Source of the DNA: Mobula hypostoma
Taxonomy: Eukaryota
Assembly: GCF_963921235.1 (NCBI RefSeq)
Contig: NC_086097.1
Span: forward strand, 81,036,001 to 81,100,000
Length of the DNA stretch: 64,000 nt
Direction: 5' to 3'
Position 1 is the first letter of the stretch. Each line of letters starts with the position of its first letter. The position numbers and the translations under genes were made by a program. Below the pieces are notes generated by a model that worked only from the letters and a program-made list of their open reading frames with translations, was not told the origin of the DNA and ran no database searches. Below are positions 3,945 through 56,134 of this stretch, piece by piece.

Positions 3945-5150
3945 AGTTTTGAGGGTATGATACCATCATCCTCTCAAAACTAATCAATAAGCTCCAAGAC
4001 CTTGGGCATCAATACTTCCTTGTTCAACTGGATTCTTGATTTCTTCACTCATAGACTCCAGTTGTTTTGAATTGGCAACAGCATCCCCTCCACAAAATCC
4101 ATCAGCACAGGTACACCACAGGCTGTGTGCTCAGCCCCTTCTCTAGTCACTTTGTACTTATGAATACATGGCTAAGTACAGCTCCAATGCCGTATTTAAA
4201 TCTGCTGACGACACCACTATTGTGGGATGAATCAAAGATGGTGACAATTCAGCATATAGGAGGGAGATTGAAAATCTGGCTTAATGGTGCCACACCAACA
4301 TTTCACTCAATGTCAGAAAAACCAAATAGCTGATTACTGACTACTGGAGAAGGAAACTGGGAGGTCAGTGAGCCAGTCCTCATCAAGGGATCAGAGGTGG
4401 TGAGAGTCAGCTACTTTAACTTCCTCAATGTTATCATTTTAGAGGATCTGTTCTAGGTACAGCGTGTGACTGCCATTACAAAGAAGGCATGGCAATGCCT
4501 CTACTTTCTGCAACGTCTAAACCATTTGGCATGCAATCTAAAACTTTGGCAAACGTCTATAGATGCGCATTGGAGCGTATACCGATTGACTACATCATGG
4601 CCTGGTATGACAATACTAATGCCACTGAATGAAAAAAAAACAATAAAAGGTAGTGGATACAGCCTAGTCCATCACAGGTAAAGCCCTCCCCACCATGGAG
4701 CATAATTACGCAGAGTACTGTCACAGGAAAGCAGCATCCATCATCGAGGACTCCCACCATCCATGCTATATTCTCGCTGCTGCTATCAGGATGTGGTACA
4801 GAAGCCTCAGATCCCAATTTACTCTATTTTACTGCTCTTTCATATGTGCTATATGTGCCTTGTGCTGTGTTTGGCCATTGGTACTGTGGTTTGCACCTTG
4901 GTCCCAGAGTAACACTGTTTCATTTACTAGTTGGCAGAGATACTAAAAAATCCATCCTGATGAAGGGTCTCAGCCTGAAATGTTGGCTGTTTCCTCTTTT
5001 CCATAGATGCTGCCTGGTCTGCTGAGTTCCTCCAGCATTTTGTGTGTGTTGCTTGGATTTCCAGCACGTGCAGATTTCCTCTTGCTCGTGACTATTTCAT
5101 TTGATTGTTTTTATGGGTATTCATGATTGAAAAATTAAATTTGAACTTGA
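3945..5150 (+). mobile_element. Degenerate Rex/Babar-like LINE 3' fragment (3' UTR interrupted by a hammerhead element)
   Basis: Remnants of T.TPQGCVLSP, ADDTTIVG, KKAWQCLYFLQRL, KAASIIED.HHP; TTGAACTTGA tail. Confidence 0.78.
4926..5090 (+). mobile_element. Short non-coding Penelope-derived element with hammerhead motif
   Basis: CTGATGA-AGGGTCTCAGCCT-GAAA-TGTT at 4957-4984, then the family 3' end. TSD ACT(G/A)TTTCATTT at 4914-4925 and 5091-5102. Confidence 0.82.
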
Positions 5151-5944
5151 CATCATGTCATCAGTAACTTTTCACTGCCACTTCTCCAGAAACACAATTT
5201 TTCTTCAAATGGACTGCTCTGTGCTGAACATAATTTTATCCTGGCTCAAAAGCAATAAATATTACTTCCAGGTATTATTTTCCAAATTATATTAAATAAA
5301 TAGTGATATTACACTTGACAGTCTCTTGGCCGACTCCATTTCCTCTTACTGACCAGCTCACATGGACACCCAATTCCCTTTGCTGTCCTACAACACAATC
5401 TGGTGGTATTTATTTAAAATTTCCTGATTTGAGCCAGAATTTTCTAACCTCCTGCATACATCACTCCTTCTTGAAGTCATTACTAAATGTGGCAAAAAAC
5501 TGAGATCCCACAAAGGAAATCTGCTCATTAATTTTGACACAAGGATGTTTCTTTTCCCATACTCAGTCTCCTATCATTCAACCTAATCCACCTCCTCCTG
5601 TTCCACACGTTTTCATTTTTTGATCTTTTCTGATCCAGAATTACGCTAAGCACCAAAAGAAAACCCCCATGGCCCAATTTCGCAAATTTCAAGGAGTGAG
5701 GAGGGTGGGGAAAGTATCCCTGTAGCTAACTTGTTGAGTTCATAGAAATAAAAATCATCCACATTACTTAGACATGACTTATGCTTTGTAATTCCATGCC
5801 AATCATCCGTGCAGTCCTGTACTTGTCAAGTGCACAATCACAAAATGCCTTATGATGGAGTGCAGTAACATCCCCACAAGCAATGGTAAATCATCAGCTC
5901 TGCAATTGTTTTCTCCCTCTCTTGATTTCTTAAATAATAGAATG

Positions 5945-6626
5945 CATCATCACACTCATCCATGCCCTTATATCCTCCCGCTTGGACTACTCCAACCCCC
6001 TGTACACTGTGATTAGTCAGTCGGCCCTGTCCCGCCTGCAACTGGTCCAGAACACCGCAGCCAGGCTCCTGACAGGTACCCGGAAGAAGGATCATATTAT
6101 TTCTATCCTGGCCTCCCTCCACTGGCTACCAGTACAGTTTAGAATTGATTTTAAGGTTCTCCTGTTTGTTTATAAAGCCCTAAATGAGCTGACCCCCTCC
6201 TATATCACAGACCTTCTAACCCCTTATTCTAATTCCAGGTCCCTCAGGTCGGTTGACTTGGGGCTTCTGGCTGTCCCGCGATCTAAATTTAAAATCAGGG
6301 GTGACCGCACCTTTGCTGTTGTAGCCCCTAGACTGTGGAACAGCATTCCCCTCCCTATCAGATCTGCCCCCTCCATTGACTCTTTTAAGTCCAGGATCAA
6401 AACTTACCTTTATTCACTAGCGTTTGAATCTTCCTGATGTGGCTGATTTTGGCACATGCCTAGGCTCATGTGTTGTTTATTTTGCGCCTATAAGCTGTGT
6501 GCCTTGTTGTTTATATCTGTGTTTCTTGTATTTCAGGTTTTAGCTACCTGCTATGGTTTGTCCAACATGGATTGTTTTTAAATGTGCTTTATAAATAAAT
6601 TTGACTTGAATTGACTCGATTTGACA
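5945..6626 (+). mobile_element. L2-clade LINE 3' fragment
   Basis: LDYSN...LQLVQNTAARLLTG...LHWLPVQFRIDFKVLL...APRLWNSIP (ORF 5982-6437), AATAAA and (TTGAC)n-like tail. Confidence 0.9.
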
Positions 6627-6981
6627 CTGTACAAGATAGTACATTTAGACCACAATATAAAGCAGTTGCACTGAGACATTTGAGGTCTCTATATTAAGCA
6701 TCCCAGTCATAGTTTATTTGTAGATTATAAATATATCAATGGGATACTTACATTTTAAGAGGTACTATATACAAATTATTTTCTTCTCTCACTTGAGCAT
6801 TTCAAGAGCATCACTTTCCTCACTAACAAGCAGTTATGAATATTTCTGCAAAACAATAGCTAGCACAATGAATTGTTAAATATTTCCCCACTGCACTTTC
6901 TCTCCTGACTTTACTAAAATGCATGCAAAATTCCCTTTCAAAGTCTTCATTGAAGTCAGAGTGCACACTCCATCTACCCAC

Positions 6982-10509: not shown

Positions 10510-11148
10510 TGGAAGATCTCCAGCTGTCTTCCCATTTAAATTTAACTTTCCATTCATTCCCATTCTGACATATCTGTCCATAGCCTCCTCTATTGCCATA
10601 ACAAAGTCAAACTCGGGTTGGGAGAGCAACACATTATATCTTGACTGTATAGCCTCTAACCTAATGGCATGAACATTAATTTCTCTAACTTCCAATAATT
10701 TCTCCCGATTCCCTCCTTTTTTTTTTAATTCCCAGTTCTGGTTACCCTCTCATCCCTTCTCTTCCCACCTGCCCATCACATCCCTCCAGTTTCTCTCCTC
10801 CTTCCCTTTCTCCCACAGTCCAGTCTCATCTCCTATTTGATTCTTCCTCTTCAGGCCTTGACTTCTTCCACCTATCACTCCCCTGCTTCTTACTTTATCT
10901 CCTCTACCCCACTCACCCACCTCACCCCCCACCTGTTTGCACCTACCGCCTGCCACCTCGTACTCTTTCCTCTCCCCCCACTTTCTTACTGTGGCTTCTA
11001 CCTCCTTCCTTTCCAGTCCTGATGAAGCATCTCAGCTCAAAATGTCAACTGCTTATTCCCTTCCATTGATGCTGCTTGACTTGCCAAGTTCATCCAGCGT
11101 GTTGTGTGTTGCTCAAGATTTTCAGCATCTGCAGAACCTCTAGTGCTT
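10510..11148 (+). mobile_element. 5'-truncated degenerate Penelope-like element (end of GIY-YIG, 3' UTR, hammerhead remnant)
   Basis: Colinear with 31760-32300. CAGTC-CTGATGA...AAAA-TGTC at 11014-11051 (GAAA mutated). TSD ATCCAAA at 10503-10509 and 11149-11155. Confidence 0.85.
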
Positions 11149-13689
11149 ATCCAAAGCAAATACAGCTTAATCTTAAATTGGTAAAATTATCTTCAATTAT
11201 GCTGCAGGGAATGTCAATTGTAATACGTGATTAAGACAAATTACGTTGGTTAAAGTGAAGGGGCAGGAAAAAAAGTTGCAAAGAATACTAAGAAAAGTGT
11301 GTTTGATTTAGTTTTTATTGTTCTAGTTTATTGTTTCTTTCTACTTGCTAAATTGCTTTTTAATTATTTTGCATGTTTTCTACTGCTGGGTTTGACAGCC
11401 CCTGAGCCAGGCAAAGCTTATTCAAGTGAACAATGTGCTTTGCTGTTTGAAATTTCTTCCTGGTAGATCTAATGAAAGTATAAGAACACTATCACAGATA
11501 TTCCCTGCAAATGGACAATTCAGTGGATGGCACTGGAACTCTGAGCCACAGTGAAGAGCAACAGCAGTTAGAGTAAAAATGCACATTCAGCTACCGCGAA
11601 GCAACTGATGGTCAAGGTTGCAACAACCCAAAAGTGCCCCTGATCCATGAGTATTTAGTCTGCAAAATGTAAGCCTACATCTCCAGCATAGCCACACCTT
11701 TTAAATGCTGGAGCAAGAACAAAACCAAGTCATGACATTGATATATTTTTTAAAAATCCATTTGCTAATGGAATTCATCAATGGTATCATGGCCCTTGAT
11801 TCATGTTCCATGCCCTCTCTTGGTGCTGCACATTTACTTAGGACATGCAAGGTGAATTCTCTTGACTGGAGAGAATCCTGTAGATAAATGAGCTCAGTCA
11901 CCAAGAAGCACCATCAGCTACCGACCTAAGTGGAGAAGATCAAGCAACTCTGATTTAACCTTCTGAATATCCATCCAGGCACTGCACAGAGCGACGCCCA
12001 AGCTATAAGCATTCAGGTAGAGCACCAGGCAAAGTATGTAAATAGCAAAAAGTTTAAAATGCACTGAGAAGCTTAAAATAAAGAGGATCTAAAAATGCTG
12101 TTGAAATGGAACTGAAAGCAGCACAGAAATACTTGGCTTGAAAAACTGGCAGCAGGTTTGTGAAAGAATTCTGATCTTTAGGTAATCCTGTCACAGGTCT
12201 CACAAGGGCTGAGAAGGTCCTCTTCCACATGAGTGACCTCTGGTCATAACTGTGTGCCTGGGCTTTCATGTGTTTATATCTTTGACTCACAGAGGATCTG
12301 GAATGAAAATTGTGGATTTTGTGCCATGTGCTGTATGACCACAATTTTCCAATGCTTTTTATATTCCATTGAATTTGAATAACATAGCAAACAAATCCAA
12401 CTTGAAGGCGAACATGCCTGAGGATTTTATAATCTATGCAGCTTGCTGTTGTGAACGAACTAAAGGAGGGCTGCAATTATGGTCATCATAAATGAAGTCA
12501 CCAGAGCTAAGCGATGGTCTGTCAAGCAGTTCCTTTGGAGAAATGTAAAGCTGTCAAATGATAGTACCTTTGCTAGTAACAATCATTGGGATCATTGGTT
12601 CTGTATTAGTAAAATTAATAGACCATTTCAAGTTCTCATATGAATCATTTTATTGATGGCTCAATATACTGCCATTTTATTATTTCTTTAATAAACATTT
12701 ATTCTTCAAATGGGAGAGCATTGAGGCAATATACAAGGCAATAATTTGTTCTTTCACTATATTTTCTTGGGCTTTTCCAGAAATATTTTTATTTGTACTT
12801 GCATCTGGCTTAGAACTTGCCATTTTGGGACTGTGCTGTTGGCTTTTGCAATTATCCAATATTAAAGGCTAAACAGCTACCAATTCTTAAAAGCCATACA
12901 TTCACTGTAAAACACTTCAAAACATCCAAAAACTATGAAAGGAGGTACAGGAATAGCTCTTTAACATTTTGTTGTTCTATTTTGCCTGGAATGGAGATAC
13001 TGAAAAATGTTGAAAAGAGTAACTTGGCAGTTTAACAGCAATAAAGCAGATGAAGCAATGAGAAGTTAATACATGGAGCAGAATATTTCTTTTTTTCCAC
13101 AATACCATCCAAGGTTACATCAACAAAGGACTATTATAATGTTAACTCTTACCAAAAGGTTTTGATGAAAAAACCTGCAGCATTCCCTGGTGATTCAGGA
13201 TCAGTGTTCTAACTTCCAAGAAGTGCACATTCACCAAGAGTATCATTTACTTTGAGCTGCTCTGACTATAAATGCGCACCAGACCTTGCAAATTTGATCT
13301 TAAACTTCTTTTGTCTCAATTTCCTTCATCTTCATTCCCAATTTGTTAACTTTTTAACTTTCTGACGATGCTTGCAAGGTTCTGTGATTAAGGGAGTATT
13401 TAAATGAAACTATTTAAGTAATCTAGATATTTATCATTTTAATTTTCAGCTCTTTGGATTTTCAATTCTTTCATAAGATGGACGGCAATTTTAGCAGATC
13501 TGTGACATCTCCGGAAAGGCATGACCATGAAACACTCCAGCCTGTGAAGAAGGTACTTAAGTTCTTCCTCTTTCCACCAGCTCAATGTGGCTGTAGTAAA
13601 TGCAGCCTAATATTCAGGAACTGTCAGATTTCACCCCTTGGTATGAAGTTCAGGACCAGGAACACCAGAGCCCACGTGAGGGTTTCCAA

Positions 13690-14583
13690 CAGCTATGAAT
13701 TTGCTGATGATACAACCATTGTTAGCAGGATTTCAGATGGTGTTGAGAGGGCGTACAGGAGCAAGATATATCAGCTAGTTGAGTGGCGTTGCAGCAACAA
13801 CCTTACACTCAGTGTCAGTAAGACCAAAGAACTGATTGTGGAATTCAGAAAAGGTAGGGTGAGGGAACACACACCAGTCCTTATAGAGGGATCAGAAGTG
13901 GAAAGAGTGAGCAATTTCAAGTTCCTGGCTGTCAATGTCCCTTGAGAATCTAACCTGGGCCCAACGTAGCGATGCAGCTACAAAGAAGGCTCGGCAGTGG
14001 CCATACTTCAATAGACATTTGAGAAGATTTGGTATGTCACCAAAAACACTCAAACATTTCTACAAATGTACCATGGAGAGCATTCTAATTGGCTGTATCA
14101 CTGTGGAGGAGGGTGGGGGCAATTGCACAGGATCAAATTTAAATTGCAGAGAGTTGGAAACAGTCAATTCCATCCGGAGCACTTTCTCCGTAGTATCCAG
14201 GATATCTTCAAGGAGCGATGCCTCAAAAAGGCACCATCCAACACTAAGGGGGGTGGGGGGAATCCCCATCACCCAATCACCCAGGTCATGCCTTGTTCTC
14301 ATTGCTACCATCAGAAAGAGGTACAGAAGTGTGAAAGTCAACGATTCAGGAACAGCTTCTTCCCATCTGCAATCTGATTTATGAATGAACACTGAACCCA
14401 TGAACACTACCTTGTTAGTTTTTTTATTTCTATTTTAGCACTACTTATTTAATTTAACTAATATATATATTTACTGTAATTCAGCTTTTTTCTCTATTAT
14501 AATGTATTGCATTGTACTGCTGCTACAGAGTTAACAAATTGCACACCATATGCCAGTGATATTAAACCTGATCCAGATTCTGA
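13690..14583 (+). mobile_element. Rex/Babar-like LINE 3' fragment
   Basis: YEFADDTTIVSRI...LVEW...NNLTLSVSKTKELIVEFRK...FKFL; RFRNSFFPSAI; ATTAAACCTGATCCAGATTCTGA tail. Confidence 0.85.
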
Positions 14584-19455: not shown

Positions 19456-19643
19456 ACACAATAAAATCTGCAGATGCTGGAAATCCAAGCAACACACACA
19501 AAATGCTGAAGGAATTCAGCAGGCCAAGCAGCATCTATGGAAAAAGCACTGCTGAAGGGTCTCAGCCCAAAATGTCAAGTGTGATTTTTTCCAAAGATGC
19601 TGCCTGGCCTGCTGAGTTCCTCCAACATTTTGTGTGTGTGTGT
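19456..19643. mobile_element. Palindromic miniature Penelope-derived element with a hammerhead remnant in the loop
   Basis: Arms 19492-19545 and 19585-19640 are reverse complements. Spacer holds CTGCTGA-AGGGTCTCAGCCC-AAAA-TGTC. Imperfect TSD AACA(TC/CA)AAATCAA at 19443-19455 and 19644-19656. Confidence 0.82.
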
Positions 19644-28462: not shown

Positions 28463-29681
28463 CATTGAGGTACCCTGAAATCCACCATCTCACTGGAGGA
28501 GCATTCTACTGCCTCCACTTGTTATACTCCTAACTTCTCAAGCTTAATTTCTAGCCTGTGCCTGTTCTCATCAAAGCCTGGCCAGTCGAACACTGCCCAC
28601 TCCAACAATGGCTGCTCCCACGATGACTGCTCTTCTTGAACCTAACTTCTTTTTACTGGCCCTCGCTGTGTTAGTATTATTATCATTCCACAATATCCTG
28701 CTCTGCAGCCAAGTCCTAACACGTCTCGCTTGCTTTTTAAAACTGTCACGTAAGATCCACAAGGAACTGTCTCCAGCTCACTGTACAATATACCTCTCTG
28801 CAGGCAAGTCCTGACATGTACTATAAAGCTTGCTAGCCAATAGTGGTTACCAAACATTTTTTAAGATATACTGTATATTTCCTTGTAAACGGAACAGTAT
28901 TTAATCTGAGATCTCTTTGACTGGATGCTTCTAATGTTTGTGTATTTGCATAACTTTAACAATATTATCATAAACAAGTCCAGTTTGAAACAGACTTCTG
29001 TATCCTTTAGGTTCCTGCAGTCATCTAACACCAGAAAGGGGCTCTTTGGATCACCGAGTGTGTACTGATTTCAAGCGCACATTTCACCAAAATCACTTTT
29101 GTTCTCCCCACGTTCTCAAAAATTCCCTCTAGATTCCATTACTCATTTACCCAAAAGGGATGCACAGTGGCCAAATAACTTCTAACCTATATGTCCTTGG
29201 GAAACTCACAGTCAATAATTTGAACATACCACACCGACTGTACTGGAGATCAGAAGTGAATCCAAGCGAGCGAAGCAGCGAGGCAGCAGCTCTGCAAACT
29301 GCACCAATGTATACTTTGAGTCATTCAGAAATGAAGAACTATCTTTAACAAACGCTCGATGATTAAGGGGAAATAATATAAGAAGAACTTTCTATAATGA
29401 AACCAGATCTCTTAGAAAAGACTGGAAGGACTGGCATTCACACCTAAAACAATAAAGGATATTTCCTCTTTCATGTAGAAGTGGAATTAAAATCCAGAAT
29501 TATGTGGCTGCCACAAACAAGTGCAAAAGGAATTCAGAAGAGTTATTTTTCCTAGAGACTGTTTAGAACATAATACTTACAACATGCAACAGGAATTCTG
29601 CAGATGCTGGAAATTCAAGCAACACACATCAAAGTTGCTGGTGAACGCAGCAGGCCAGGCAGCATCTGTAGGAAGAGGTAC

Positions 29682-29717
29682 AGTCGACGTTTCAGGCCGA
29701 GACCCTTCGTCAGGACT
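29682..29717 (-). ncRNA. Minimal type-I hammerhead ribozyme, core intact
   Basis: AGUC-CUGACGA-AGGGUCUCGGCCU-GAAA-CG-UC-GACU: stem I AGUC/GACU, both core boxes, stem II, palindromic ACGU in place of stem III, GUC cleavage triplet. Confidence 0.75.
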
Positions 29718-30634: not shown

Positions 30635-31937
30635 AGCTTCTTTTTGGATTCCAGACCTAATCAGTTCCCCTCTACCACCACTCTGCTCCGTCTAGTGGAA
30701 TTAGTCCTTACTCTTAATAATTTCTCCTTTGGCTCCTCCCACTTCCTCCAAACTAAAGGTGTAGCTATGGGCACCCGTATGGGTCCTAGCTATGCCTGCC
30801 TTTTTTGTTGGGTTTGTGGAACAATCTATGTTCCGTGCCTATTCTGGTATCTGTCCCCCACTTTTCCTTCGCTACATCGACGACTGCATTGGCGCTGCTT
30901 CCTGCACTCATGCAGAACTCGTTGACTTTATTAACTTTGCCTCCAACTTTCACCCTGCCCTCAAGTTTACCTGGTCCATTTCCGACACCTCCCTCCCCTT
31001 TCTAGATCTTTCTGTCTCTGTCTCTGGAGACAGCTTATCCACTGATGTCTACTATAAGCCTACTGACTCTCACAGCTATCTGGACTATTCCTCTTCTCAC
31101 CCTGTCTCTTGCAAAAACGCCATCCCCTTCTCGCAATTCCTCCGTCTCCGCCGCATCTGCTCTCAGGATGAGGCTTTTCATTCTAGGACGAGGAAGATGT
31201 CTTCCTTTTTTAAAGAAATGGGCTTCCCTTCCTCCACTATCAACTCTGCTCTTAAACGCATCTCCCCCATTTCACGTACATCTGCTCTCACTCCATCCTC
31301 CCGCCACCCCACTAGGAATAGGGTTCCCCTGGTCCTCACCTACCACCCCACCAGCCTCCGGGTCCAACATATTATTCTCCGTAACTTCCACCACCTCCAA
31401 CGGGATCCCACCACTAAGCACATCTTTCCCTCCACCCCTTCTGCATTCCGCAGGGATCGCTCCCTACGCAACTCCTTTGTCCATTCGTCCCTCCCATCCC
31501 TCCCCACTGATCTCCCTCCTGGCACTTATCCGTGTAAGCGGAACAAGTGCTACATATGCCCTTACACTTCCTCCCTTACCACCATTCAGGGCCCCAAACA
31601 GTCCTTCCAGGTGAGGCAACACTTCACCTGTGAGTCGACTGGGGTGATATACTGCGTCCGGTGCTCCCGATGTGGCCTTTTATATATTGGCGAGACCCGA
31701 CGCAGACTGGGAGAGCGCTTTGCTGAACATCTACGCTCTGTCTGCCAGAGAAAGCAGGATCTCCCAGTGGCCACACATCTTAATTCCACATCCCATTCCC
31801 ATTCTGACATGTCTATCCACGGCCTCCTCTACTGTAAAGATGAAGCCACACTCTGGTTGGAGGAACAACACCTTATATTCCGTCTGGGTAGCCTCCAGCC
31901 TGATGGCATGAACATTGACTTCTCTAACTTCCGCTAA
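30635..31937 (+). pseudogene. Truncated Penelope RT/GIY-YIG ORF with one frameshift
   Basis: ORF 30389-30925 (..LTLNNFSF...GVAMGTRMGPSYACLF) shifts into ORF 30792-31937 through an extra T in the T6 run at 30801-30806. Confidence 0.88.
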
Positions 31938-32227
31938 GGCCCCACCTCCCCCTCGTACCCCATCTGTTACTTATTTTATGCACACATTCTTTCACTCACT
32001 CTCCTTTTTCTCCCTCTGTCCCTCTGAATGTACCTCTTGCCCATCCTCTGGGTCCCCCCCCTTGACTTTCTTCCCGGACCTCCTGTCCCATGATCCTCTC
32101 GTATCCCTTTTGCCTATCACCTGTCCAGCTCTCGGCTCTATCCCTCCCCCTCCTGTCTTCTCCTAGCATTTTGGATCTCCCCCTCCCCCTCCAACTTTCA
32201 AATCCCTTACTCACTCTTCCTTCAGTT

Positions 32228-32263
32228 AGTCCTGACAAAGGGTCTCAGCCTGAAACGTCGACT
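32228..32263 (+). ncRNA. Hammerhead ribozyme copy with core mutation (CUGACAA), probably inactive
   Basis: AGTC-CTGACAA-AGGGTCTCAGCCT-GAAA-CGTC-GACT. Confidence 0.65.
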
Positions 32264-32332
32264 GCACCTCTTCCTACAGATGCTGCCTGGCCTGCTGCGT
32301 TCACTTACAACATACGTAGGTTCTATCACATA

Positions 32333-34080
32333 CAGTGGCGATGCTGAGGAGCTGCCCAGCAGAAATTACAATAGCATCACCAAGAAATTAACTGAAATTT
32401 GACATACAAATTGCAGCTGCTTTTTCAGTATAGGTTTGAATACAGCTTGATTCTCCAGTTGATCTAGTGAAACAGCACTCCCAATTACCATAGCACCCAC
32501 ACAGCAATAAAGTTATAAACTCTGTACTGGTCTAAGGTCAGATCCACTCCACACTTCTGCTTATTTGCTCGTTGTCAATGTCTTGCCGTTGCTGTGCTCG
32601 GATCAGTTAAGCTGATCTAAGATCAGTTAAGGTGGTGATGTCACTCACTCTCACTCATGCGAGAGATTGATAGTATACATACATTGTGCAGGATCCAGGC
32701 GCAGATCCATGGTCTCACGAGACTAATAGATGCCACACGCACACATTGTGCTTTTACAAGCTAGCGTGGGCCTGGCACGTGCATTATTTTGGCTGGCGTG
32801 AAAAATGGATCGATTTTTAGTGAGAAAACGACCTCATCCAGAGGAATCAGTGGTGTCTCAGCCTGAACCTGTCTTAATTGAAAGTGACATGCAGAAAGAA
32901 GCAAGTGGGGATGAGGACGACAGCAGTTCATCGAAGGAGTGTGAGAGCGAAGTAGAGGAACAAGAAATGGAGTGGGATTCAGAAAAGAATCTGGATGAAG
33001 CTGCTCTTAGTGCTAGTGGGAATACTGTTAGTGATGTTATCCAGCAGCCTGAGGAAGGACTCCATCGGCCAGCATTGAAAAAATACCCTTTGCAACAGTT
33101 TGGCAATCAGCAAAGGAGTTTTATTCGTGGCTGGTTTGACCTGTACTCCTGGCTGGAATATTCGATCACGAAAGATACTACGTTCTGCTTCGCATGCAGG
33201 CATTTCCTGTGTGCCGGACATGGGTTCCATTCTGAGTCTACATTCACTATCACCGGTTACCACAACTGGCGGAAAGCTACAACAACTTTCAAAATCCACC
33301 GTGTAAGTGCAGCTCAGAAGTTTGCTATGGACACATGGGCCGAATTCAGATTGAGAAAACAAGACAGATCGAGATTGGGAAATATGCTTGATAAAGGACA
33401 TGCAAAGATTGTCCAAGAAAATTGTGAGTATATGAGAGCAGTGGTTGACTCTCTACACTATACTGCATGCCAAGGCATTGCCCAGCGAGGACACCGGGAG
33501 GATGATGGATCTGGCAATAGGGGAAACTTTGTGGAGTTGCTCAGTGTAATTGGGCAGTTTGATAAGACTGTAGCTAAAAAAAAAATAGAGGACAATCCTG
33601 GAAATACCGAAAATACCCATCACAATATCCAAAATGAAATTATGGCTATTATGGCAGATATGGTCAGATGTCAAGTGAGTACAGAAATCAAGGAGGCTGC
33701 ACATTTTGCCATCATGGTGGATGAAAGTAAAGACTTGAGTAAAAAGGAGCAAATATCAGTGGTGGTGCGTGATTCACGTTGTGCGCTGTGGGTCGGATGC
33801 TCTTCTGGTTTGTTTGTTTATGCTCTGTGTAGCCCGGATTGTCTCCAAAGTTGTGGACACTGTCACAGTTCACTTCTATATTATATTTATCAATTGCTGT
33901 TGCTTGTGAATCAACAGAGGCATTTATAGTAGGCACATAATGCTTGAAACTGACTTTTGAACACCACGCATCTGGCCTTGCGAATACATATTACCAAACA
34001 GTACATCCCTCAGAACCATCACCGAATATATTCAGCCCCACTGTAGCACCAGCAAGAAAAAATCTCTGGTGCCGCCACTG
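32333..34080 (+). mobile_element. Internally deleted hAT DNA transposon (ZMYM1-like, TTF zinc finger + DUF4371-type transposase)
   Basis: TIRs CAGTGGCG / CGCCACTG, extending to about 14 bp if CpG decay is allowed. ORF 32805-33929 has RSF...WF..YSWLEYS...FCFACRHF, RGHRED....RGNFVELL and FAIMVDESKDLSKKEQISVVVR, then loses similarity near 33770. Confidence 0.88.
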
Positions 34081-36387: not shown

Positions 36388-36529
36388 AACCAGTCCTGCT
36401 GAAGTGTCTCAGCCCAAAATGTTGACTCTACTCTTTTTTATTGATGCTGCCCAGCCTGCTGAGTTCCTCCAGCATTTTGTGTGTGTTGCTCGGATTTCCA
36501 GCATCTGCAGATTTTATTTTGTTTGTGAT
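36388..36529 (+). mobile_element. 142-bp hammerhead-led non-coding Penelope-derived element
   Basis: Starts with CAGTC-CTGCTGA-AGTGTCTCAGCCC-AAAA-TGTT-GACT. Perfect TSD TGGGTTATTTAATTT at 36373-36387 and 36530-36544. Confidence 0.88.
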
Positions 36530-38659
36530 TGGGTTATTTAATTTGGCTGCTTCAAACTAGACAACACAGGCTAAGTTGTTTAGTAAGTGGGAGTAGGCTG
36601 TTGAAATGCTTTTGGCATGGACTAGATGGGCCGAAGGGCCTGTTTCTCTGCTGCACTTCTCCATGATCTAAGTGTGCTATTTGTTTGATGATTGTGATTT
36701 GATGTCTGCTTATGACTAATTATTTAGATCAGGGAATAGCTGGTATAAAAATTACTGTTTCTCCAGGAATGGAATTGGTGCAATGGAAATTTATGAAGCT
36801 GGCCCTTGATGGAACCAAAGAAAATCCTGGCCTCAACTGATGTCTCGGCCATGCTCAAAATCAGTTTCTAGATAAGCAGTCAAGCATCTACAAAATTGGA
36901 AGTCAAGTTTATGGTGATAAATTAATGGACTGATGGGAATCTATAAATCAAACAAACTACATAATTGAAGCATCTTATTTTGATAACATATGATAGGAAA
37001 TTATTTGCTTCCTGTCAAACAATGAATACCAGACAGATAAGTTGACCTACATTTTCTCAATATGCTCCAACGATGCATGGGACAACAATGACAGGAACAT
37101 TGAAGTGTTTCAATTTTATTTTAACAATATTCACCACCATTGGTGGTAGGTCTTTCAGTTATGCTTTAAAGATGGAATAGCTTCTCAATTAGTGTGGTCT
37201 CTTTAAAATGTACAGTTCAGAGTTCAACCCAAATACAGAAGCAAGTAATTATTAGAAACGAAAATGAGCAATTCTGGTGTCCTTGCTAGTATACGTTTGT
37301 ACTTACAGGCTCAAAGCATGTTTGAAGGTCTTCAATTACTCAGATGGCAGACAACTCTTCCCCTCCCCTCCCCTCCCCCACCCCACCACTCCAATTCCTT
37401 TGGAAGCATTCCAAGGACTTATGCTTGTAAAACTTCTCCCTGAGCTTACCCTATGAACTGATTAGAATACTGAAAACAATGAACTGGGGAAGATTATGTG
37501 GAAAAGGTACTTGAGGCTGGGAAGTCACCTTGGACTATGACATAAAAGGAGTAAAATGCGCAATAAGCATGAAATTAATGAAAATTGTTCTTCTTCCTTC
37601 ATATTACGACCAAGACCAATGCTTTCCTCATAAAACATTCACATATGGTTGTTTGCAGAGGTTTCTGGATATTGACAGAAACTTTAGCTTGCTTTACCTA
37701 ACCCTCACTCTGCTGCCTGACCAGCATTTTGTGTGTGTTGCTCTTCTGAACAATTATTAAACCCTCCTGAATTACAATTGACCCCAAGTACAAAAGTACA
37801 TTTTCATGTTTGTGTGCATGATTCACATGCACCAACTTTCTGCTGTGAGATGCTGTTTTTTAAAAAATTTTCTGTAAATAGGATACAAAATAATAGACTG
37901 TGAATTTTGGAAAATATAAATCACTTTTCATGCGCTAAGAAAAGGGTAATTTATTTGGTAATAATCCATTCTAGCATATGGCCATTTTGCAGTTTTGTTG
38001 TGAACCAGTCAATAGTTCTTATCATATATACTGGTGACAAAGCCAAAGATGGGGATAAACTCAGGATCAGCACAGGAGGATTTTTTTTAAGAAAAGGAAA
38101 AAACTATGAGTATAAATTAGTGAGAAATACAAATACAATTAGATTGTTTTTAATTTACATGAAAGGAAGAGATAGGTCTAAGTGAATGCTATCTCCCTGA
38201 AGAATAGTTAGGGGGTACAAAGAAATAGCAGTGGAGATGCCAATAGTTTTCATCAGTCCTTCTGGTGTAAGATACTACAAACATACCATTAATTCTGACT
38301 AAAGCTGGGAATGAATTAAATGCCATAATTATCAGTAGATAATTAGAAAAGGCTTAAGGATGAAAACACCCCTGGCTTATTTTGTAGGATCATTAAAGAA
38401 ATGATAACTGAGATCACGGCTGCATTGGTAATTATTTCCCAAAAATCCTGAGATTATGGAGCAGTGCCAGTAGATTGGTAAATAGCCCATGTGGTATCGC
38501 AACTCAAAAGGAGAGGAGGGTGTAAAGGGAGGGCAACTATAAGCCAATTAGCTTTGCATCTGTTATGCAAAAATGTTCGAAGCAATTATTAGCAAAGTAA
38601 TAGAAGCACCTTTACAAAAATTTCCACCTAATCAGTCAATATGGTCGCATAAAGGTCAA

Positions 38660-40384
38660 ATTCTTTAACAGATTTGACAGTGTGGCCCCTGCCCATCCCA
38701 CACATGAGCCATCTGTTGTCGGCTCCCAACCAACACATATTCCACTCTCCCCTCCTACCCCGCCTCACAGTCCCCCACCCTGCTCTCATGACTATACCCC
38801 TTCCCCACACGAAACCACCAAGGTGGGCTTCACAGCTCTACAGGTGAGAAGACAGCTGAAACGTCTCAACCCAAGCAAGACTGTAGGACCGGATGGTGTC
38901 AGTACCAGGGTGCTCAAAGCCTGTGCCCCTCAGCTATGTGGAGTACTTCGCCATGTATTCAACCTGAGTCTGAGGCTCCGGAGGGTTCCTGTATTGTGGA
39001 AGACATCCTGCCTCGTCCCTGTGCCGAAGACGCCGCGCCCCAGCGGCCTCAATGACTACAGACCGGTGGCATTGACCTCCCACATCATGAAGACCCTGGA
39101 GAGACTTGTTCTGGAGCTGCTCCGGCCTATGGTCAGGCCACACTTAGATCCCCTCCAGTTCGCCAACCAGGCCCGACTAGGAGTTGAGGATGCCATCGTC
39201 TTCCTGCTGAACCGTGTCTACGCCCACTTGGACAAGCCAGCGAGCACTGTGAGGGTCATGTTTTTTGACTTCTCCAGTGCGTTCAACACCATCTGCTCTG
39301 CTCTGCTGGGGGAGAAGCTGACAGCGATGCAGGTGGATGCTTCCGTGGTATCATGGATTCTTGATTACCTGACTGGCAGACCACAGTACGTGTGCTTGTA
39401 ACACTGTTTGTCCGACAGAGTGATCAGCAGCACTGGGGCTCCACAGGGGACCGTCTTGTCTCCCTTTCTCTTCACCATTTACACCTCGGACTTCAACTAC
39501 TGCACGGAGTCTTGTCATCTTCAGAAGTTTTCTGATGATTCTGCCATAGTTGGATGCATCAGCAAGGAAGATGAGGCTGAGTACAGGGCTACGGTAGGAA
39601 ACTTTGTCACATGGTGTGAGCAGAATTATCTGCAGCTTAATGTGAAAAAGACTAAGGAGCTGGTGGTAGACCTGAGGAGAGCTAAGGTACCGGTGACCCC
39701 TATTTCCATCCAGGGGGTCAGTGTGGACATGGTGGAGGATTACAAATACCTGGGGATACGAACTGACAATAAACTGGACTGGTCAAAGAACACTGAGGCT
39801 GTCTACAAGAAGGGTGAGAGCCGTCTCTATTTCCTGAGGAGACTGAGGTCCTTTAACATCTGCCAGACGATGCTGAGGATGTTCTACGAGTCTGTGGTGG
39901 ACAGTGCTATCATGTTTGCTGTTGTGTGCTGGGGCAGCAGGCTGAGGGTGGCAGACACCAACAGAATCAACAAACTCATTCATAAGGCCAGTGATGTTGT
40001 GGGGATGGAACTGGACTCTCTCACAGTGGTGTCTGAAAAGAGGATGCTGTCTAAGTTGCATGCCATCTTGGTCAATGTCTCCCATCCACTACATAATGTA
40101 CTGGGTGGGCACAGGAGTACATTCAGCCAGAGACTCATTCCACCGAGATGCAGCACTGAGCGTCATAGGAAGTCATTCCTGCCTGTGGCCATCAAACTTT
40201 ACAACTCCTCCCTTGGAGGGTCAGACATCCTGAGCTAATAGGCTGGTCCTGGACCTGGCATAATTTACATATTACTATTTAACTATTTACGGTTCTATAA
40301 CTATTTATTATTTATGGAGCAACTGTAATGAAAACCAATTTCCCCCAGGATTAATAAAGTATGATTATGACTATGACTATGACT
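38660..40384 (+). mobile_element. Young 5'-truncated Rex1/Babar LINE; RT interrupted by one stop
   Basis: ORFs 38682-39401 and 39408-40238 are in the same frame (NDYRPVALTS, FFDFSSAFNT, GAPQGTVLSP, KFSDDSAIVG). GGATTAATAAAG and (TATGAC)n tail. Confidence 0.93.
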
Positions 40385-40632: not shown

Positions 40633-40772
40633 CACCACAGACAAAAATTGCTGGTGAACGCAAACGTTGACTGTACCCCTTCCTATAGATGCTGCCCGGC
40701 CTGCTGCGTTCACCAGCACTTTTTGTGTGTGTTGCTGAAATTTCTAGCATCTGCAGATTTCCTCGTGTTTGC
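40633..40772 (+). mobile_element. 140-bp Penelope-derived element with short inverted 5' piece
   Basis: CACAGACAAAAATTGCTGGTGAACGCA is the inverse of TGCGTTCACCAGCACTTTTTGTGTGTG. Retains AAACGTTGACTG (3' half of the hammerhead). TSD ATCAATAATTG at 40622-40632 and 40773-40783. Confidence 0.85.
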
Positions 40773-43742: not shown

Positions 43743-43866
43743 GGGTTTTGGCCCGAAACATTGACTGCACTTTTTTCCATAGGTGCTGCCTGGCCTGCTG
43801 AGTTCCTCCAGCATTTTGTGTGTATTGCTCGGGTTACCAGCATCTGCAAATTTTCTCTTGTTCGTT
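43743..43866 (+). mobile_element. 124-bp Penelope-derived element starting inside hammerhead stem II
   Basis: Begins GGGTTTTGGCCC-GAAA-CATTGAC. TSD ATCTCTTT at 43735-43742 and 43867-43874. Confidence 0.82.
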
Positions 43867-43904: not shown

Positions 43905-44543
43905 CCATGAGCCAGTCAACAGGGATTGGAGGTGGAGATGGTAAGTAGCTTTAAATTCCTCGGCGCTATCATATCAGAGGATCTGTTCTACGACTAGCAC
44001 CTAAGTGCCATCACAAATAGGCACAGCAGCACCTCTACTTTCTTAGAAGTTTGCACAGGTTCGTCATGTCATCTAAAACTTTGACAAACTTCTGTAGATA
44101 CACAGTTGAGAGTGCCCTTATTGGTTGTGCTATGGCCTGGTGTAGAAACACCGGTGCCCAGGAACAGAAAGTGGTGGTTGCAGCCCAGTTCATCACAGGC
44201 AAAGCCCTCTCTGCCATTGAGCACATTTACATGGAGTGCTGCCTTGAGAAATTAGCAACCATCATCAAGGACTCCAACTATCTAGGTCATGCTCTCTTCT
44301 TGCTACTACCATCGGTCCCATACCACCAGGTTCATAAACAGTTATTACACTACAACCATCAGGCTCCTGAACTGATGTAGATAACTTCAGTCACCACAAC
44401 TCTGAACTTCTGCACAGTGGTTGTTTGCCAGTCTTTGTTTGTGCATAGTTTTTCATAAATTCTATTGTAATTCTTCATTTTTCTGTAAATGCCTGCGAGA
44501 AAATTAATTTCAAGGTAGTATAGTAAATTTTATTTTGACTTGA
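43905..44543 (+). mobile_element. Rex/Babar-like LINE 3' fragment
   Basis: LTNFCRYTVESALIGC..AW...CLEKLATIIKD...GHALF (ORF 44051-44380). Confidence 0.78.
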
Positions 44544-44740: not shown

Positions 44741-44790
<50 letters not shown>

Positions 44791-44796
44791 GTATGT
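44707..44796. repeat. Compound (TA)n(CA)n(TA)n microsatellite
   Basis: Read directly from the sequence. Confidence 0.95.
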
Positions 44797-45085: not shown

Positions 45086-45514
45086 ACAGATTGTCTATAG
45101 CTAGGTTGCCTTAGACTTTTGCACAGTACTGCAGTAACTTTATGTATTGCATGTACTGCTGTCACACAAAAAAATTCATGACATACTGTATTTGAGTGAT
45201 GATAAACCTGAATCTGATATGAGTCTCTATGGGGACTGAGAGTGGAAAGGGGGCAGAGAGAGGGGAATCATAGTTGGGAAAAGGGAAAGGGAGAGGGGAG
45301 GAAAGGGAATCACCAGAGAGACATTCTGTGATGATCAATAAATCATTTGTTTGGAATCAAATTACCTTGCTTTGTGTCTCAGGCCTGCATCACCCACCCC
45401 CCCTCCACTGCCCCAGCACACCTTCTCTGCCAGCTGCCCTATACCTTTCCCATGGTGTTCCACCCTTGCCACTCCCAATATCCTTTGCTCCTGCCAAATT
45501 TACAAACTCACTCT

Positions 45515-45666
45515 ACTCCATGTTGATAAATACAGTACCATGCACACCCAATACTCCACATTGACAAACATAGTACTGTGCAAACCCAATACTCCACGTT
45601 GACAAATACAGTACTGTGCACACCCAATACTCCATGTTGACAAACATAGTACTGTGCACACTCAAC
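45515..45666. repeat. 38-bp minisatellite, 4 copies
   Basis: Units start at 45515, 45553, 45591 and 45629 (ACTCCAYRTTGAYAAAYAYAGTACYRTGCAMACYCAAY). Confidence 0.93.
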
Positions 45667-50289: not shown

Positions 50290-53200
50290 CTTTAAAAAGG
50301 TGCATCCAGGAAGGTTTCTTAAATCAACATATAGATAGTCCAATAAGAAGAGGGATCATACTGGACTGGGAATTGGGATATGAGCCTGGCCAGGTGACTG
50401 TCCATTCAGTATCTGATGCTGGTTTAAGATGGCGCTGATGAATCTCAGTAATTTCTGACAGGTGGCCAATGAAACAAGGAAAACAACAAAATACTTTGTT
50501 AATCATTCTTTTTCTGGTAAATGATCACAAGCAATAGTCTGTATCTTCCTTTTAAACTTGGAGGCAATTCGACACGACAAAACTGAGCCGAAGCAAGTGT
50601 TACGAATCCCTAGGTTTCCTTTGCTGTGGCCTGTCACTTTAAGAGAGTGCCTGAGTGAGGCGGGGCTAACAATGACGTCAGGTGGCAGCTTTCTCAGCTC
50701 ACTTCTGGCTTTTACGGGGAGGAAGGGGGAGGAGGAGGGGAAGAGGGAGTGGGGAGGGGAAGAGGGAGTGGGGAGGGGAGGAGGGGGAGGGGGGGAGGGG
50801 AGGAGGGGGAGGGGGAGGGGGGAGGGGAGGAGGGGGAGGGGGGAGGGGGAGGGGAGGAGGGGGAGGGGGGAGGGGAGGAGGGGGAGGGGGGAGGGGGGAG
50901 GGGAGGGGAGGGGAAGAGGGAGTGGGGAGGGGGGAGGGGAGGGGAGGGGGAGGGGGAGGAGGGGGAGGAGGGGGAGGGGAGGGGGAGGAGGGGGAGGGGG
51001 GAGGAGGGGGAGGGGAGGGGAGGGGGGAGGGGAGGGGAGGGGGAGGGGGAGGAGGGGGAGGGGAGGGGGAGGGGAGGGGGAGGGGAGGGGGAGGGGAGGA
51101 GGAGGGGAGGAGGAGGGGGAGGGGGGAGGAGGAGGGGAGGGGGAGGAGGAGGGGGAGGAGGGGGGGAGGAGGGGGAGGAGGGGGAGGAGGGGGAGGGGGA
51201 GGGGGAGGGGGAGGGGGAGGAGGGGGAGGAGGGGGAGGGGAGGAGGGGGAGGAGGGGGAGGGGGGAGGGGGAGGGGGGGAGGAGGGGGAGGGGAGGAGGG
51301 GGAGGGGAGGTGAGGGGAGGGGAGGGGAGGAGAGGAGGGGAGGGGAGGGGAGGAGAGGGGAGTAGGGGGAGGGGAGGGGAGGAGGGGGGAGGGGAGTAGG
51401 GGGAGGGGAGGGGAGGAGGGGGAGGGGAGGGGAGGAGGGGGAGGGGAGGGGAGGAGGAGGGGGGAGGGGGAGGGGGAGGAGGAGGAGGGAGGGGGAGGGG
51501 GAGGAGGGAGGAGGGGGAGGGGAGGAGAGGGGAGGGGAGGGGAGGAGAGGGGAGGGGAGGGGGAGGAGGGGAGGGGAGGAGAGGGGAGTAGGGGGAGGGG
51601 AGGGGAGGAGGAGGGGGGAGGGGAGGGGGAGGGGGAGGGGAGGAGGGGGAGGGGAGGAGGGGGGAGGGGAGGAGGGGGAGGGGGGAGAGGGGAGGGGAGG
51701 GGAGGGGGGGGGAGGGGGGAGAGGAGGGGGAGGGGGAAGAGGAGGGGGAGGGGGGGAAGAGGAGGGGGAGGGGGGAGGGGAGGGGAGGAGGGGGGGAGGG
51801 GAGGAGGGGAGGGGAGGAGGGGAGGGGAGGAGGGGGAGGGGAGGGTGTAGGGGAGGGAGAAGAGGGGAAGGAGTGGGGAGGGGGAGGGGGAGCGGAAGAG
51901 GGGGAGGGGAGGGGGAGGGACAGAGGGGGGAAAACTGTCAGTTGGAATGAGAGAGACAGAACAGCTGCTCTCGTAGTCTGAGTAAGACTTGGATTTAAGA
52001 ACTGCCGGGGCAAGATTTGCACCAGAATGTGTGTCTGTTACTTCATATAATCCAAAGGAGTGGATTTAGGAATGTCCTGTGGGACCACTCAAAGTTAAAC
52101 CTTGCCTGGGTATGTCATGTGGTAATCACTTGAAGATGACATTGCTGTGACAGGTCACTTTGGTGATATATCTAAGTGGACTTTGGATCAATTCAACAGA
52201 CAAGATGTTCGACAACGGTTTGCATTGACCTGTGGAATTCGACATAATTGCCATCTCTCTACATTTACCCTGGATTACAAATATCTCTGTCCCATAATTT
52301 ATTCCAAAGTGTCTGGACCCGATGTTTCGATGGTGATTTAAGCACCAGTCTGCATCAGAAATGTCAGGTATAGGCTGAATCGAGGTGGCAGAGTCCATGC
52401 CCCAGAGTCTATCAAAGCTACTGAACCAATGTTTGAATGACAATTTAAGCACCAGAGAAGATTGAAAAGATCAGAGTGTCAGGGCCTGAGCCAAAGGACA
52501 GGGTAGTTCAGCTTAATGCTCTGCAATGTTTATTCGGCTCTGCGCTGAACTAAGAGTCTGGGGACTCATGGTGGACTATTGTTCAGAACGCTATTTGCTT
52601 ACAGTTATTGTTTGCATGATCTCTTTTCTCTGCACATTGGGTACTTGACAGTCTTTTTAAAAAATGGGTTCTTTGGGGTTTCTTTGCTTCGAGGCTGCCT
52701 GTTAGGAGATGAATCTCAAAGTTGTATAATGTAAACATACCTTGATAATGAATGTACTTTGAACTTTTGAGTTTTGAAGTTTGAGTTAGGGAACAGTGAT
52801 TCTAGTTTTAAAATAGCTACAGATAAGGATAAGTGTGGATCTTGCAGGGAGTATTTAATTGGAGCAGGGCAAATTAAGAGTGTATTCAGCAAGAACTAAG
52901 GAGAGTTCATTGGTTACAGCCTTTGAGCAAGTCCAAAGCGAACATGTACAGGGGGTTGAAAGGCCACGTGCGCAGATAACATGACAGGTATATTCCAGTA
53001 AGAGGGGAGGACAAGGATGGCAAGGGAACTTTGGAAATCATGAGAGGTGAGGATTTAGTCAAAGAAAGTTTGAGGAAGAGAAAATCAGAGCCCTTCAGGA
53101 TCTTCAAGAAACCTGAAAAGAACTCAATAAGGGAATTAGGAAAGTCATGAAGGGCCATGAAAATCCTTTGGCAAGTAGGATTAAAAAGAATCCCTGGATA

Positions 53201-53710: not shown

Positions 53711-55320
53711 CAGTGGTGTTAGAAAGTTTGTGAACCCTTGAGCATTTTCTCTATTTCTGTATAAATATGACCAAAAATGTGATCAGATCATCATGTAAGT
53801 CCTAAAACTAGATAAAGACAATCCAATTAAAAATAATACAAAAATTATACTTGTTCATTTATTTATTAAGAAAAATGATCAAATATTACATGTATTTGTT
53901 GGAAAAAGTATGTGAACCTTTGCTCTCAGTAACTGGTGTAACCTACTTGTACAGCACTAACTTCAACCAAATACTTCCGGTAACTGTTGCTCAGTCTAGC
54001 ACATCAGCTTAGAGGAATTTTAGACCATTCCTCCATTCAAAACTGTTCCTGTTACACCAATAATTCTGGGATACCTTGCATGAACAGCCCTTTTCAGGTC
54101 AGTCCACAGCATCTCAATTGGGTTAAGATCTGGATTTTAACTTGGCCATTTCAAAACACAAACTTTCTTCTTTTTAAACCATTCTGTTGTTGATTTAATC
54201 TTGTGTTTCAGATCATTGTCTTGTTGCATCATCCGACTTCGATTAAGCTTCAGGTGATGGACTGCTACCCTGGCATTCTCCTGTAAAAGGTCTTGATACA
54301 ATTTTGAATTCATTATTCCCTCAACGATTACAAGCTATCCAGGCCCTGAGGCAGCAAAGTAACTCTAAACCATGATACTCCGCCCACCATGCTTCATAGT
54401 TGGGATGAGGTTTTGGTGTTGGTGTGCAGAGCTCTTCTCCTTCCAAACATAGCAGTGTGTGCATTTCTGCAAAAAAGTTCAACTTTTGTGTCATCTGTCC
54501 ACAGAATATCAACCCAAAAGTATTGTGGAACATCAATGTGGTCTGTGTAAACTTGAAACCTGCAGCATTTTTTTTTCCTGAGAGGAGTGCTTTTCACCAT
54601 GGTATCCTTCCATGAACACCATTTTTGTTCAGTGTTTTTCTTATAGTGGGCACATGAATAGAGACTTTAGCAAGTTCTAGAGATTTCTGCAGGTCTTTTG
54701 CTGTTACGCTTGGGTTCTTTTTCACCTCCTTCAGCATTGCACATTGTGGTCTTGGTGCAAACTTTGTATGACACCCACTCCCAGGGAGAGTAGCAACAGT
54801 ACCGAGTTTCCTCTGTATGCAGACAATTTCTCTCTGTGGACTGATGAACACATAGGTCTTTTGAATTTCTTTTTTAGCCTTTTCTAGCTTGATGCATCTC
54901 TACAATTCTTCTTCTACGGCCCTCTGAAAGATCGAGGCACTGTGCATATAAACAGATCTTTCTTGAGAAGAGCAGGCTCTGTCAGTAACCTGATTTTGTG
55001 TGTCCTTTTTAAAGGGCAGGGCATTCCTACATCCAACACCTCCAATCTCATCTCATTGATTGGAACACCTGACTCCAAATAGCTTTTGTAGATGGTGTTA
55101 CCCCTGAGGTTCACATAATTTTTTGAACCTAAACTGTGATTGTTTATATGGCGTACTCAGTAATGATGGGAAGAAGTACAATTGTTTGTGTGTTATTGAT
55201 TCAGGCAGATTGTGTTTGTCTATTATTGTGACTTAGATGAAGATCAGACCGCATTTTATGAGTATTTAATGCAGAAAACCAGGTAATTGGAAAGGATTTA
55301 CCAACTTTTTCATGCGACTG
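53711..55320 (-). mobile_element. Full-length decayed Tc1 transposon with long (about 200 bp) IR/DR-type inverted repeats
   Basis: TA|CAGTGGTG...GCGACTG|TA. Inner repeats near 53903-53919 and 55108-55125. Frameshifted transposase: TLPGSG...KKNP.VTAKDLQKSL, ILWTDDTKVELF, QQDND, WP...PDLNPIEMLW. Confidence 0.92.
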
Positions 55321-55604
55321 TATGTGGCATTTCAACCGTCTATTTCTATCCTCCTTGTCTGCCACATTCTGTTCACCAGTTACCAATTTTTTGCAACTTG
55401 CAGTCAGTAGGAAACAAAGTGTTCATTATTTTTCAGAGCCATCCAAAAATGTCTTCAATGCCAGCCATTCAAGGCATTAGGAAAGAACAATATATGCTTC
55501 ACTGGATCTACAGCCTGGGTGAAGAGAATACAAAGCAGCTTGAACACTTAAACAGTCAGAGGAAAGAATCAATACAACGTGGTTAATGTTAACACAGAAA
55601 GGAT

Positions 55605-56134
55605 CAAGGAGGAGCAACATAATCTCCTGGAGAAAACTCAGTGGGTCAAGCAGTGAGAGAAATAAATTGTTTTGGATTGAAACCCTGCATCAGGACTGAG
55701 AAGGAGAAGTGAGATGGTCGGCACTGAGAGGGGAAGAGGACTGGCAAGAAAAGATTCCGAGGTGATTCGTGGACTGGAGAAGGGTGTAAGATAACAGGCG
55801 GGTAGTGTCAAGCCCTGCAGGTGGTGAACAGGGAGGAGTTGGCAGGTGAATGACAGATGGAGACAGACAAAGAAAGAAGAGGGAAAAAAACACCAGATAG
55901 ACCAGGTGTGGGGGAGGGGAAGATTGCAGATGGGACACAGCTGCTGGAGGCCATAAACAGGAAAAAAGTGCTTTCAGAATTGAATTTGGTGAGAATAAGA
56001 ACAGTAGAGGAGAAAGGAGAGGTGAAAATGATTAGAACCAGCTCGGGGGTGGGTTACCATCCCTTAACCAACTGAATTCCTCCAGCAGATTGTATGCTGG
56101 TCTAGCTTCCAGCATCTGCAGTCTCTTGTGTCTC
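55605..56134. mobile_element. Older Penelope-derived element with inverted ends and hammerhead remnant
   Basis: Minus-strand CAGTC-CTGATGC-AGGGTTTCAATCC-AAAA near 55670-55698. Plus-strand family 3' end TTCCTCCAGCAGATTG...TTCCAGCATCTGCAG at 56075-56125. Confidence 0.65.

Follow-up and report, generated by a model that had tools for sequence, protein, structure and literature searches.

The Locus

We analyzed a 64,000-nt stretch of contig NC_086097.1 (the window), part of a 3.48-Gb genome, in which short sequences carrying all or part of a hammerhead ribozyme accompany a truncated Penelope-like element (PLE). A first-pass annotation of this DNA had grouped the short copies into a dense, non-coding family resembling short interspersed nuclear elements (SINEs) or retrozymes, mobilized by a Neptune-type reverse transcriptase (RT) and bounded by the ribozyme; all the copies it listed are present in the window. 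Judged by sequence, the short copies are the last 95–135 nt (i.e., the 3′-terminal repeat) of a 3.5-kb Neptune-type PLE. The named best matches of the element protein come from rays and sharks (70–94% identity), which identifies the host, by protein similarity, as a ray-like cartilaginous fish. Positions in the element are given relative to the C of the ribozyme core CUGAnGA (position 0); the predicted cut lies between +27 and +28, and −4, four nucleotides 5′ of CUGAnGA, is the first base of hammerhead stem I. The element in the window consists of the following parts.

29586..32302, both strands: 5′-truncated PLE with an inverted arm, flanked by an exact 11-bp target-site duplication (TSD) at 29575–29585 and 32303–32313
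30765..31937, plus: open-frame remnant with the RT YIDD motif, a CX4CxxC linker, and a GIY-YIG endonuclease
29586..29681, minus: post-ribozyme end module (the PLE tail), with two 3′-end sites about 36–40 nt apart
29682..29717, minus: sole intact minimal type-I hammerhead in the window (stem I of 4 bp, CUGACGA, extra A, stem II, GAAA, palindromic ACGU)
32228..32263, plus: second ribozyme copy, with a core base changed (CUGACAA), in the plus arm of the element

The plus arm runs from about 30760 through the C-terminal half of the RT, the linker, the GIY-YIG domain, the 3′ untranslated region (UTR), and the ribozyme, and stops 70 nt past the core start; the minus arm (30634–29586) has the full tail, and the two arms are 97.8% alike over 995 nt. 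The RVT_1 domain is matched at E 3e-5 and the GIY-YIG domain at E 1e-3 and 2e-4, just under the curated cut-off. One open reading frame (ORF) that encodes an RT plus a C-terminal GIY-YIG endonuclease is the layout of endonuclease-bearing (EN+) PLEs, and the zinc-finger linker between the two (CKRNKCYIC) is of the CX2-5CxxC type, which the main text of PMC8557442 assigns to both the Neptune and the Nematis clades. A Neptune-type RT as the mobilizing enzyme is thus supported, with the reservation that this linker type is common to Neptune and Nematis. Walking upstream gives a unit of ~3.5 kb, and partial tandems occur at 4 of 30 loci in one set and 12 of 30 in another. Partial tandems of the pseudo-long terminal repeat (pLTR), an adjacent inverted truncated copy (present at 63 of 119 young copies), a tail, and a TSD complete the EN+ picture; the main texts of PMC8557442 and PMC3846280 describe 5′ truncation, a pLTR, an inverted arm, and a 30–40-bp tail for such elements. 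Within the repeat, the tail region is where the ORF opens; translation likely starts near +160 (MPT).

The hammerhead at 29682–29717, with its cut predicted between 29686 and 29685, has the CUGAnGA and GAAA cores, stems I and II, the extra base, a palindromic remnant of stem III, and an NUH cleavage site, which bears out its earlier description as a minimal type-I motif; across the genome, short copies begin at the base that corresponds to 29717. This stretch (29717–29682, minus strand) is also the sole match in the window to a strict minimal-hammerhead descriptor, the remaining copies having decayed. The core is identical in 26 young-type and 34 old-type copies, with N7 variable. With other stem sequences, 18 of 80 related loci from metagenome contigs match the descriptor in sense orientation, with 1 antisense match and 0 in the reversed control, the stem pairing in this test being imposed by the descriptor itself. 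An Rfam scan of the window returned no hammerhead model match at E ≤ 1 and no match to tRNA, 5S, or 7SL (i.e., to a Pol III head; no tRNA-directed scan was made); the head of the short copies is the ribozyme itself. Genome-wide, the cleavage-site C is changed to a purine, mostly G, about 3–4 times as often as a control C at +51 (~810 versus 225, by eye); such changes should block cleavage if to G, and the excess may reflect CpG mutability.

The copies elsewhere in the window are as follows.

4926..5090, plus: short copy of 165 bp; ~25 nt of filler, then the 5′ edge of a decayed ribozyme and a full tail; 12-bp TSD with 1 mismatch
10510..11147, plus: older-subfamily 5′-truncated copy of 638 bp with the endonuclease C terminus, UTR, decayed ribozyme, and tail
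About 19456..19643, both strands: short head-to-head pair; plus arm from the core C, without a tail; minus arm with a tail
36388..36529, plus: short copy of 142 bp beginning at the 5′ edge of a decayed ribozyme; 15-bp TSD
40633..40772, both strands: short head-to-head pair of 140 bp, ribozyme mostly absent; 11-bp TSD
43743..43866, plus: short copy of 124 bp beginning at stem II, no CUGAnGA; 8-bp TSD
55605..56134, both strands: old divergent inverted pair; decayed ribozyme and UTR on the minus strand, tail on the plus strand (E 1e-7 and 6e-7)

Five of these are indeed short insertions (124–188 bp) with TSDs of their own, as first described, but two of the five (19456 and 40633) are head-to-head two-arm pairs and not monomers. 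The TSDs are clear (8–15 bp) in four and degenerate at 19456 (11 bp with 2 mismatches, by eye). The statement that most copies begin at or inside the ribozyme needs narrowing: three of the five begin at the 5′ edge of the motif (4926, 36388, and the plus arm of 19456), 43743 begins at stem II, and 40633 retains the last part of the motif only. Nor does the label "non-coding" fit 10510–11147, an ordinary 5′-truncated copy that includes endonuclease-coding sequence (79% identical to 31794–31932) and has a 7-bp direct repeat at its ends (by eye). Three further, very old and degenerate end-module copies, absent from the earlier list, match the end-module profile at E 1e-5 to 1e-6: 19306–19369 (minus), 19693–19768 (plus), and 48799–48909 (minus).

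Abundance of the End Module

The end-module profile was run on 100 random 10-kb stretches of the genome (1 Mb in all), with the same sequence reversed as the control. It gave 202 matches versus 0 in the reversed sequence, and the strict hammerhead descriptor gave 16 versus 0; the end-module matches are therefore not chance, and the family is as dense as had been proposed. The profile density extrapolates to roughly 700,000 arms genome-wide, and an exact 21-mer of the young motif occurs ~56,000 times in the genome.

A Sharp 5′ Boundary at Stem I

Copy ends were mapped in a young sample of 120 loci picked by tail sequence alone (30 plus 90, the latter from the first 92 of 6178 exact matches), from which 1 locus without a main alignment was excluded (n = 119). 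Of the 88 young copies that reach +1, 28 stop in −8..+1. For the flanking windows the figures are 3 of 60 (−18..−9) and 8 of 96 (+2..+11); tested against 100 flanking nt, the excess has a binomial P of 6e-14. Among the inverted arms, 18 of 63 end in −8..+1. Other 5′ ends of young copies form a shoulder at +2..+21 (15 of 119) or are scattered, out to −1464. The peak is also seen across ages: 35 of 142 copies of all ages from the random sequence, scoring at least 50 bits, end in −10..+1 versus 6 in −20..−11, as do 8 of 30 old-type copies with a different UTR, divergence blurring the ends in both of these sets. Two other ways of mapping ends proved unsuitable: strict TSD mapping of random copies was too insensitive (TSDs found for 22 of 187; null 6 of 366), and lenient all-against-all extension, which displaced ends upstream through chance matches, was not used.

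Genome-wide, ends were counted by searching for a 21-mer with a non-reference base in front, the first 100 rows for each pattern being sorted by eye into true ends and point mutants. Purine-preceded ends number ~2660 at −4 (3969 matches; 67 of 100 rows true), ~150 at −14 (219 matches; 70 of 100), ~380 at the cut site, +28 (1191 matches; 32 of 100), and ~55 at +52 (280 matches; 20 of 100); for non-T-preceded matches the counts are 3969 at −4 and 234 in all at +12. Ends at the first base of stem I thus exceed those at the four other positions about 7- to 50-fold, ratios that are rough because the 21-mers differ in CpG content and sample one position each.

The ends are accordingly not scattered, and the proposed sharp boundary at the ribozyme withstands the test of scatter named for it beforehand; like a SINE, the copies have a fixed 5′ head, which is true of about one-third of those that reach the site. 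The boundary does not, however, coincide with the GUC cleavage site, as had been supposed. It lies 31 nt upstream of the cut, with the uncut ribozyme inside the copy, and self-cleavage therefore does not make the unit.

In non-element flank, a G in front of the −4 start is itself mostly preceded by T (13 of 18 and 14 of 20 rows, by eye); this TG could combine a non-templated base with one derived from the cap, or could come from template re-copying. In 6 of 100 rows (by eye) the start is preceded by ACGA, i.e., by short re-copied pieces of template at the junction. Three of 30 near-full-length copies (L392, L403, and L404) begin at +77/+78, at a predicted hairpin. Splicing to the pyrimidine tract and AG just upstream of stem I was considered and rejected; the copies have no common leader or upstream exon, and there is no GT-AG joint among the joints listed.

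Two 3′ Boundaries

The 3′ ends cluster near +93 and near +126 to +138 (reference positions 2690 and 2725–2737). In a TSD-flanked set drawn from 50 loci, 20 of them chosen for having no element sequence upstream, the direct copies that start at −4 are 93–99 bp long in 10 of 18 cases, 132–136 bp in 7, and 85 bp in 1. The main text of PMC11167929 describes the PLE tail as delimited by two internal start sites for the RT.

Short and Long Copies Compared

Short (36) and long (48) copies of one young subfamily, compared over ~114 nt, share four haplotypes, with the same frequencies in both classes. Of 11 variable sites, none separates short from long (lowest Fisher P 0.13), their divergence is 1.8% and 1.6%, respectively, and the master lineage with diagnostic variants that a SINE would have is thus not seen among these 36 and 48 copies. 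About half of the young copies continue into the element, up to full length, and no common leader was found in the short ones. The proposal of a self-propagating SINE- or retrozyme-like family is not supported by these results; the short copies are very probably by-products of the PLE.

No tandem hammerhead units, such as retrozymes have, are present in the window, and the unit ends are not set by cleavage. Head-to-tail junctions do occur at 7 of 89 young loci, in units of 200–450 nt that contain the repeat and 70–200 nt of ORF start past the tail, and two or more ribozyme-bearing units lie at 4 of the 89. The tandem-array loci are L264, L293, L310, and L329, and also L244, L277, and L281. Among the fetched loci, no two share one of the seven junctions. 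L329, which comprises three units and a TSD-like repeat, has a junction that recurs at 4 loci genome-wide; two public runs, consisting of assembled contigs whose RNA origin is uncertain, contain a joint similar to a tandem-array junction.

Other Features of the Window

32802..33929, plus: open frame of 375 aa with DUF4371 (E 1e-16), presumably a hAT-like transposase remnant
56811..59676, plus: remnant of a long interspersed nuclear element (LINE) with endonuclease and RT (56.8–59.7 kb)
38604..40238, plus, 13427..14384, and 44021..44380: LINE remnants with RT and an ALKBH8_N-like domain
50718..51929: 1.2-kb G-rich satellite of the GGGGA type
45514..45665: four-copy tandem with a 38-bp unit

Proposed Mechanism and Alternatives

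The reading toward which we lean is that the short copies are dead-end by-products of an autonomous PLE, made when its RT primes at the tail and copies until it runs off the RNA, whose fixed 5′ end would lie at the first base of stem I, probably where transcription starts. That the template has a hard end at −4 is, taken by itself, quite probable; that this end is a capped RNA start is reasonably likely. The element's enzyme would bind near the ORF start, and the RT would prime internally on the element RNA, at either of the two tail sites (~95 or 135 nt downstream), by analogy with the Poseidon element of the anole, and would copy to the RNA 5′ end at stem I, presumably a true end rather than a pause, and presumably capped. 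On a linear transcript from −4, the competent site in the 5′ repeat would make the stub the default outcome; tandem read-through or circular RNA, without an end at −4, would yield the long copies; and head-to-head pairs would arise from two cDNAs, one per target strand. The copy contains the ribozyme, which was uncut at the time of copying. Since the ORF probably starts near +160, an RNA start at −4 would make the ribozyme a 5′ leader, and −4 falls in what we take to be an initiator-like word, YYANWYY. Main texts of earlier papers report an internal promoter in the pLTR of Drosophila Penelope (PMC2377424), initiator-like words in rotifer pLTRs (PMC3846280), and, for anole Poseidon, a dependence on ORF-start RNA downstream, shorter products from RNAs with a shortened 5′ end, and no requirement for ribozyme cleavage (PMC11167929).

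A number of observations weigh against a capped start at −4 as the source of the boundary. About two-thirds of the copies extending to the site end outside the 10-nt window, many shorter ones have their 5′ end within the motif, and the genome-wide ratios are, as noted, approximate. Near-full-length copies mostly pass the 5′ ribozyme on reaching it (11 of 12, with 1 stopping), as the proposed mechanism would have it, but this result falls short of significance (P 0.07–0.08), and only 1 of 30 near-full-length copies starts at −4, where more might be expected if the mRNA began mainly here. There is also little sign of a cap: 9 of the 18 TSD-flanked copies have no extra base, and in the other 9, with 1–12 extra bases, the last of these is G in 6 and A in 3, a single G being present in 1 case. 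The initiator-like A and the 5′ edge of stem I coincide at −4, so that the two cannot be separated by sequence. Finally, the downstream promoter element of Drosophila Penelope, as given in the main text of PMC2377424, has no in-register match here.

The principal alternative, which we hold to be unlikely, keeps the by-product origin and has the RNA end arise by 5′-to-3′ trimming that stalls at the folded or protein-bound ribozyme. It is consistent with a peak at the 5′ base of stem I in both young and old subfamilies and with the half of the TSD-flanked copies that lack an extra base, and the anole ribozyme needs the element protein to cleave, which implies binding (PMC11167929, main text). 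However, the module is not unusually stable when folded in silico (z +0.2 to −0.6 versus mononucleotide shuffles), the last extra base, where present, is most often G (6 of 9), and the layout of the ORF suits a start at −4.

That the peak instead reflects a pause of the RT as it leaves the ribozyme, or an artifact of joining through the self-complementarity of stem I, on a long RNA, is improbable. Many inverted junctions use stem microhomology, and the shoulder of ends at +2..+21 would suit either variant, but the peak persists when copies with an inverted arm are set aside (13 of the 56 others, P 3e-7), and a second crossing of the site seldom ends in a stop (1 of 12). Structure blocks an RT on its 3′ side, not once it has been copied, which also counts against a pause.

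An independent SINE- or retrozyme-like family, amplified from short masters by the PLE enzyme, would account for the fixed 5′ head, the TSDs, the very high copy number, and the head-to-tail junctions, four loci with at least two ribozyme-bearing units and one junction shared by four loci among them. We consider it distinctly improbable: no variant in the one young subfamily compared separates short from long copies, none of the seven junctions occurs at a second one of the fetched loci, and the downstream RNA required by the anole enzyme, according to the main text of PMC11167929, is missing from the short copies. Short or tandem masters may make a small contribution.

A unit defined by ribozyme self-cleavage is scarcely credible, and cleavage can at most account for a minor class: 3 of 119 young copies begin at about +28/+29 (scored +35, with a 2-nt reference difference), purine-preceded ends are more numerous at +28 than at +52 or −14, and in three junctions a copy from −8/−4 is joined to a piece whose end lies at the cut site or 1 nt before it, but the main peak 31 nt upstream is about 7-fold larger, and in about one-third of the +28 rows the join is by stem-I microhomology with an arm ending near −4. 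The three cut-site junctions (L040, G000:C5:143588754, and G000:C2:47892397) look as if the RT had jumped onto the 3′ end of a cleaved RNA.

Returning to run-off at a fixed 5′ end, we suggest, tentatively and as a generalization that we hold to be somewhat doubtful, that PLEs make a default "strong-stop" product, i.e., that a capped transcript from stem I is copied from an internal tail site to the cap, scattering hundreds of thousands of promoter-plus-ribozyme stubs, and that full-length copies need ribozyme-made circles or tandems. If so, the genome would record the start site of the element, both of its priming sites, and a trace of cleavage in vivo, and the abundance of solo minimal hammerheads in animals would be explained. 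PLE replication and the role of the hammerhead are called open questions in the main texts of PMC8557442 and PMC7761336. A single-base 5′ boundary before an uncut ribozyme, found in thousands of copies, speaks against cleavage as the source of the common insertion, and it singles out one base and two priming sites as directly testable points. For repeat curators, the stubs resemble a SINE and carry no lineage of their own.

Comparison with Known Systems

We found no published description of the 5′-end peak in the main texts of the papers compared here (Dfam and Repbase were outside the search), and Figure S2 of PMC11167929, which maps genomic copy ends, may bear on it. Like the EN+ Neptune and Nematis PLEs of PMC8557442 and PMC3846280, as their main texts present them, the element has an RT with a C-terminal GIY-YIG domain, a CX4CxxC linker, partial tandems, a head-to-head arm, a tail on one arm, and TSDs of 7–16 bp. 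In contrast to those descriptions, truncation is non-random here, about one-third of the ribozyme-reaching copies stopping within a 10-nt window.

The ribozyme shares with the solo minimal hammerheads of metazoan PLEs (Cervera and De la Peña, 2014; PMC4209133) the short stem I, the extra base before stem II, G10.1-C11.1, and the palindromic 15.2–16.2. The main text of that paper takes most single minimal motifs to be probably truncated PLEs, so that this view of solo hammerheads is already in print; compared with the motifs described there, the density here is far higher (~200 matches per Mb), and the ends are mapped away from the cut site.

Poseidon of Anolis carolinensis, studied in vitro (Frangieh et al., 2024; PMC11167929), likewise has two 3′-end sites bracketing the tail and an ORF start adjoining the ribozyme; going by the main text, it also uses both target strands and does not need cleavage, as is probable for the present element. 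It belongs to a different clade, and the ORF of the present element begins after the ribozyme and not inside it. The non-LTR retrozymes of animals, in the main texts of PMC7761336 and bioRxiv 10.64898/2026.07.22.740005, are likewise pLTR-derived and non-coding and carry a type-I hammerhead, and a minority of loci here, those with tandem units of 200–450 nt, resemble them. Unlike retrozymes, the dispersed short copies are monomers or head-to-head pairs, with ends that are not cut by the ribozyme.

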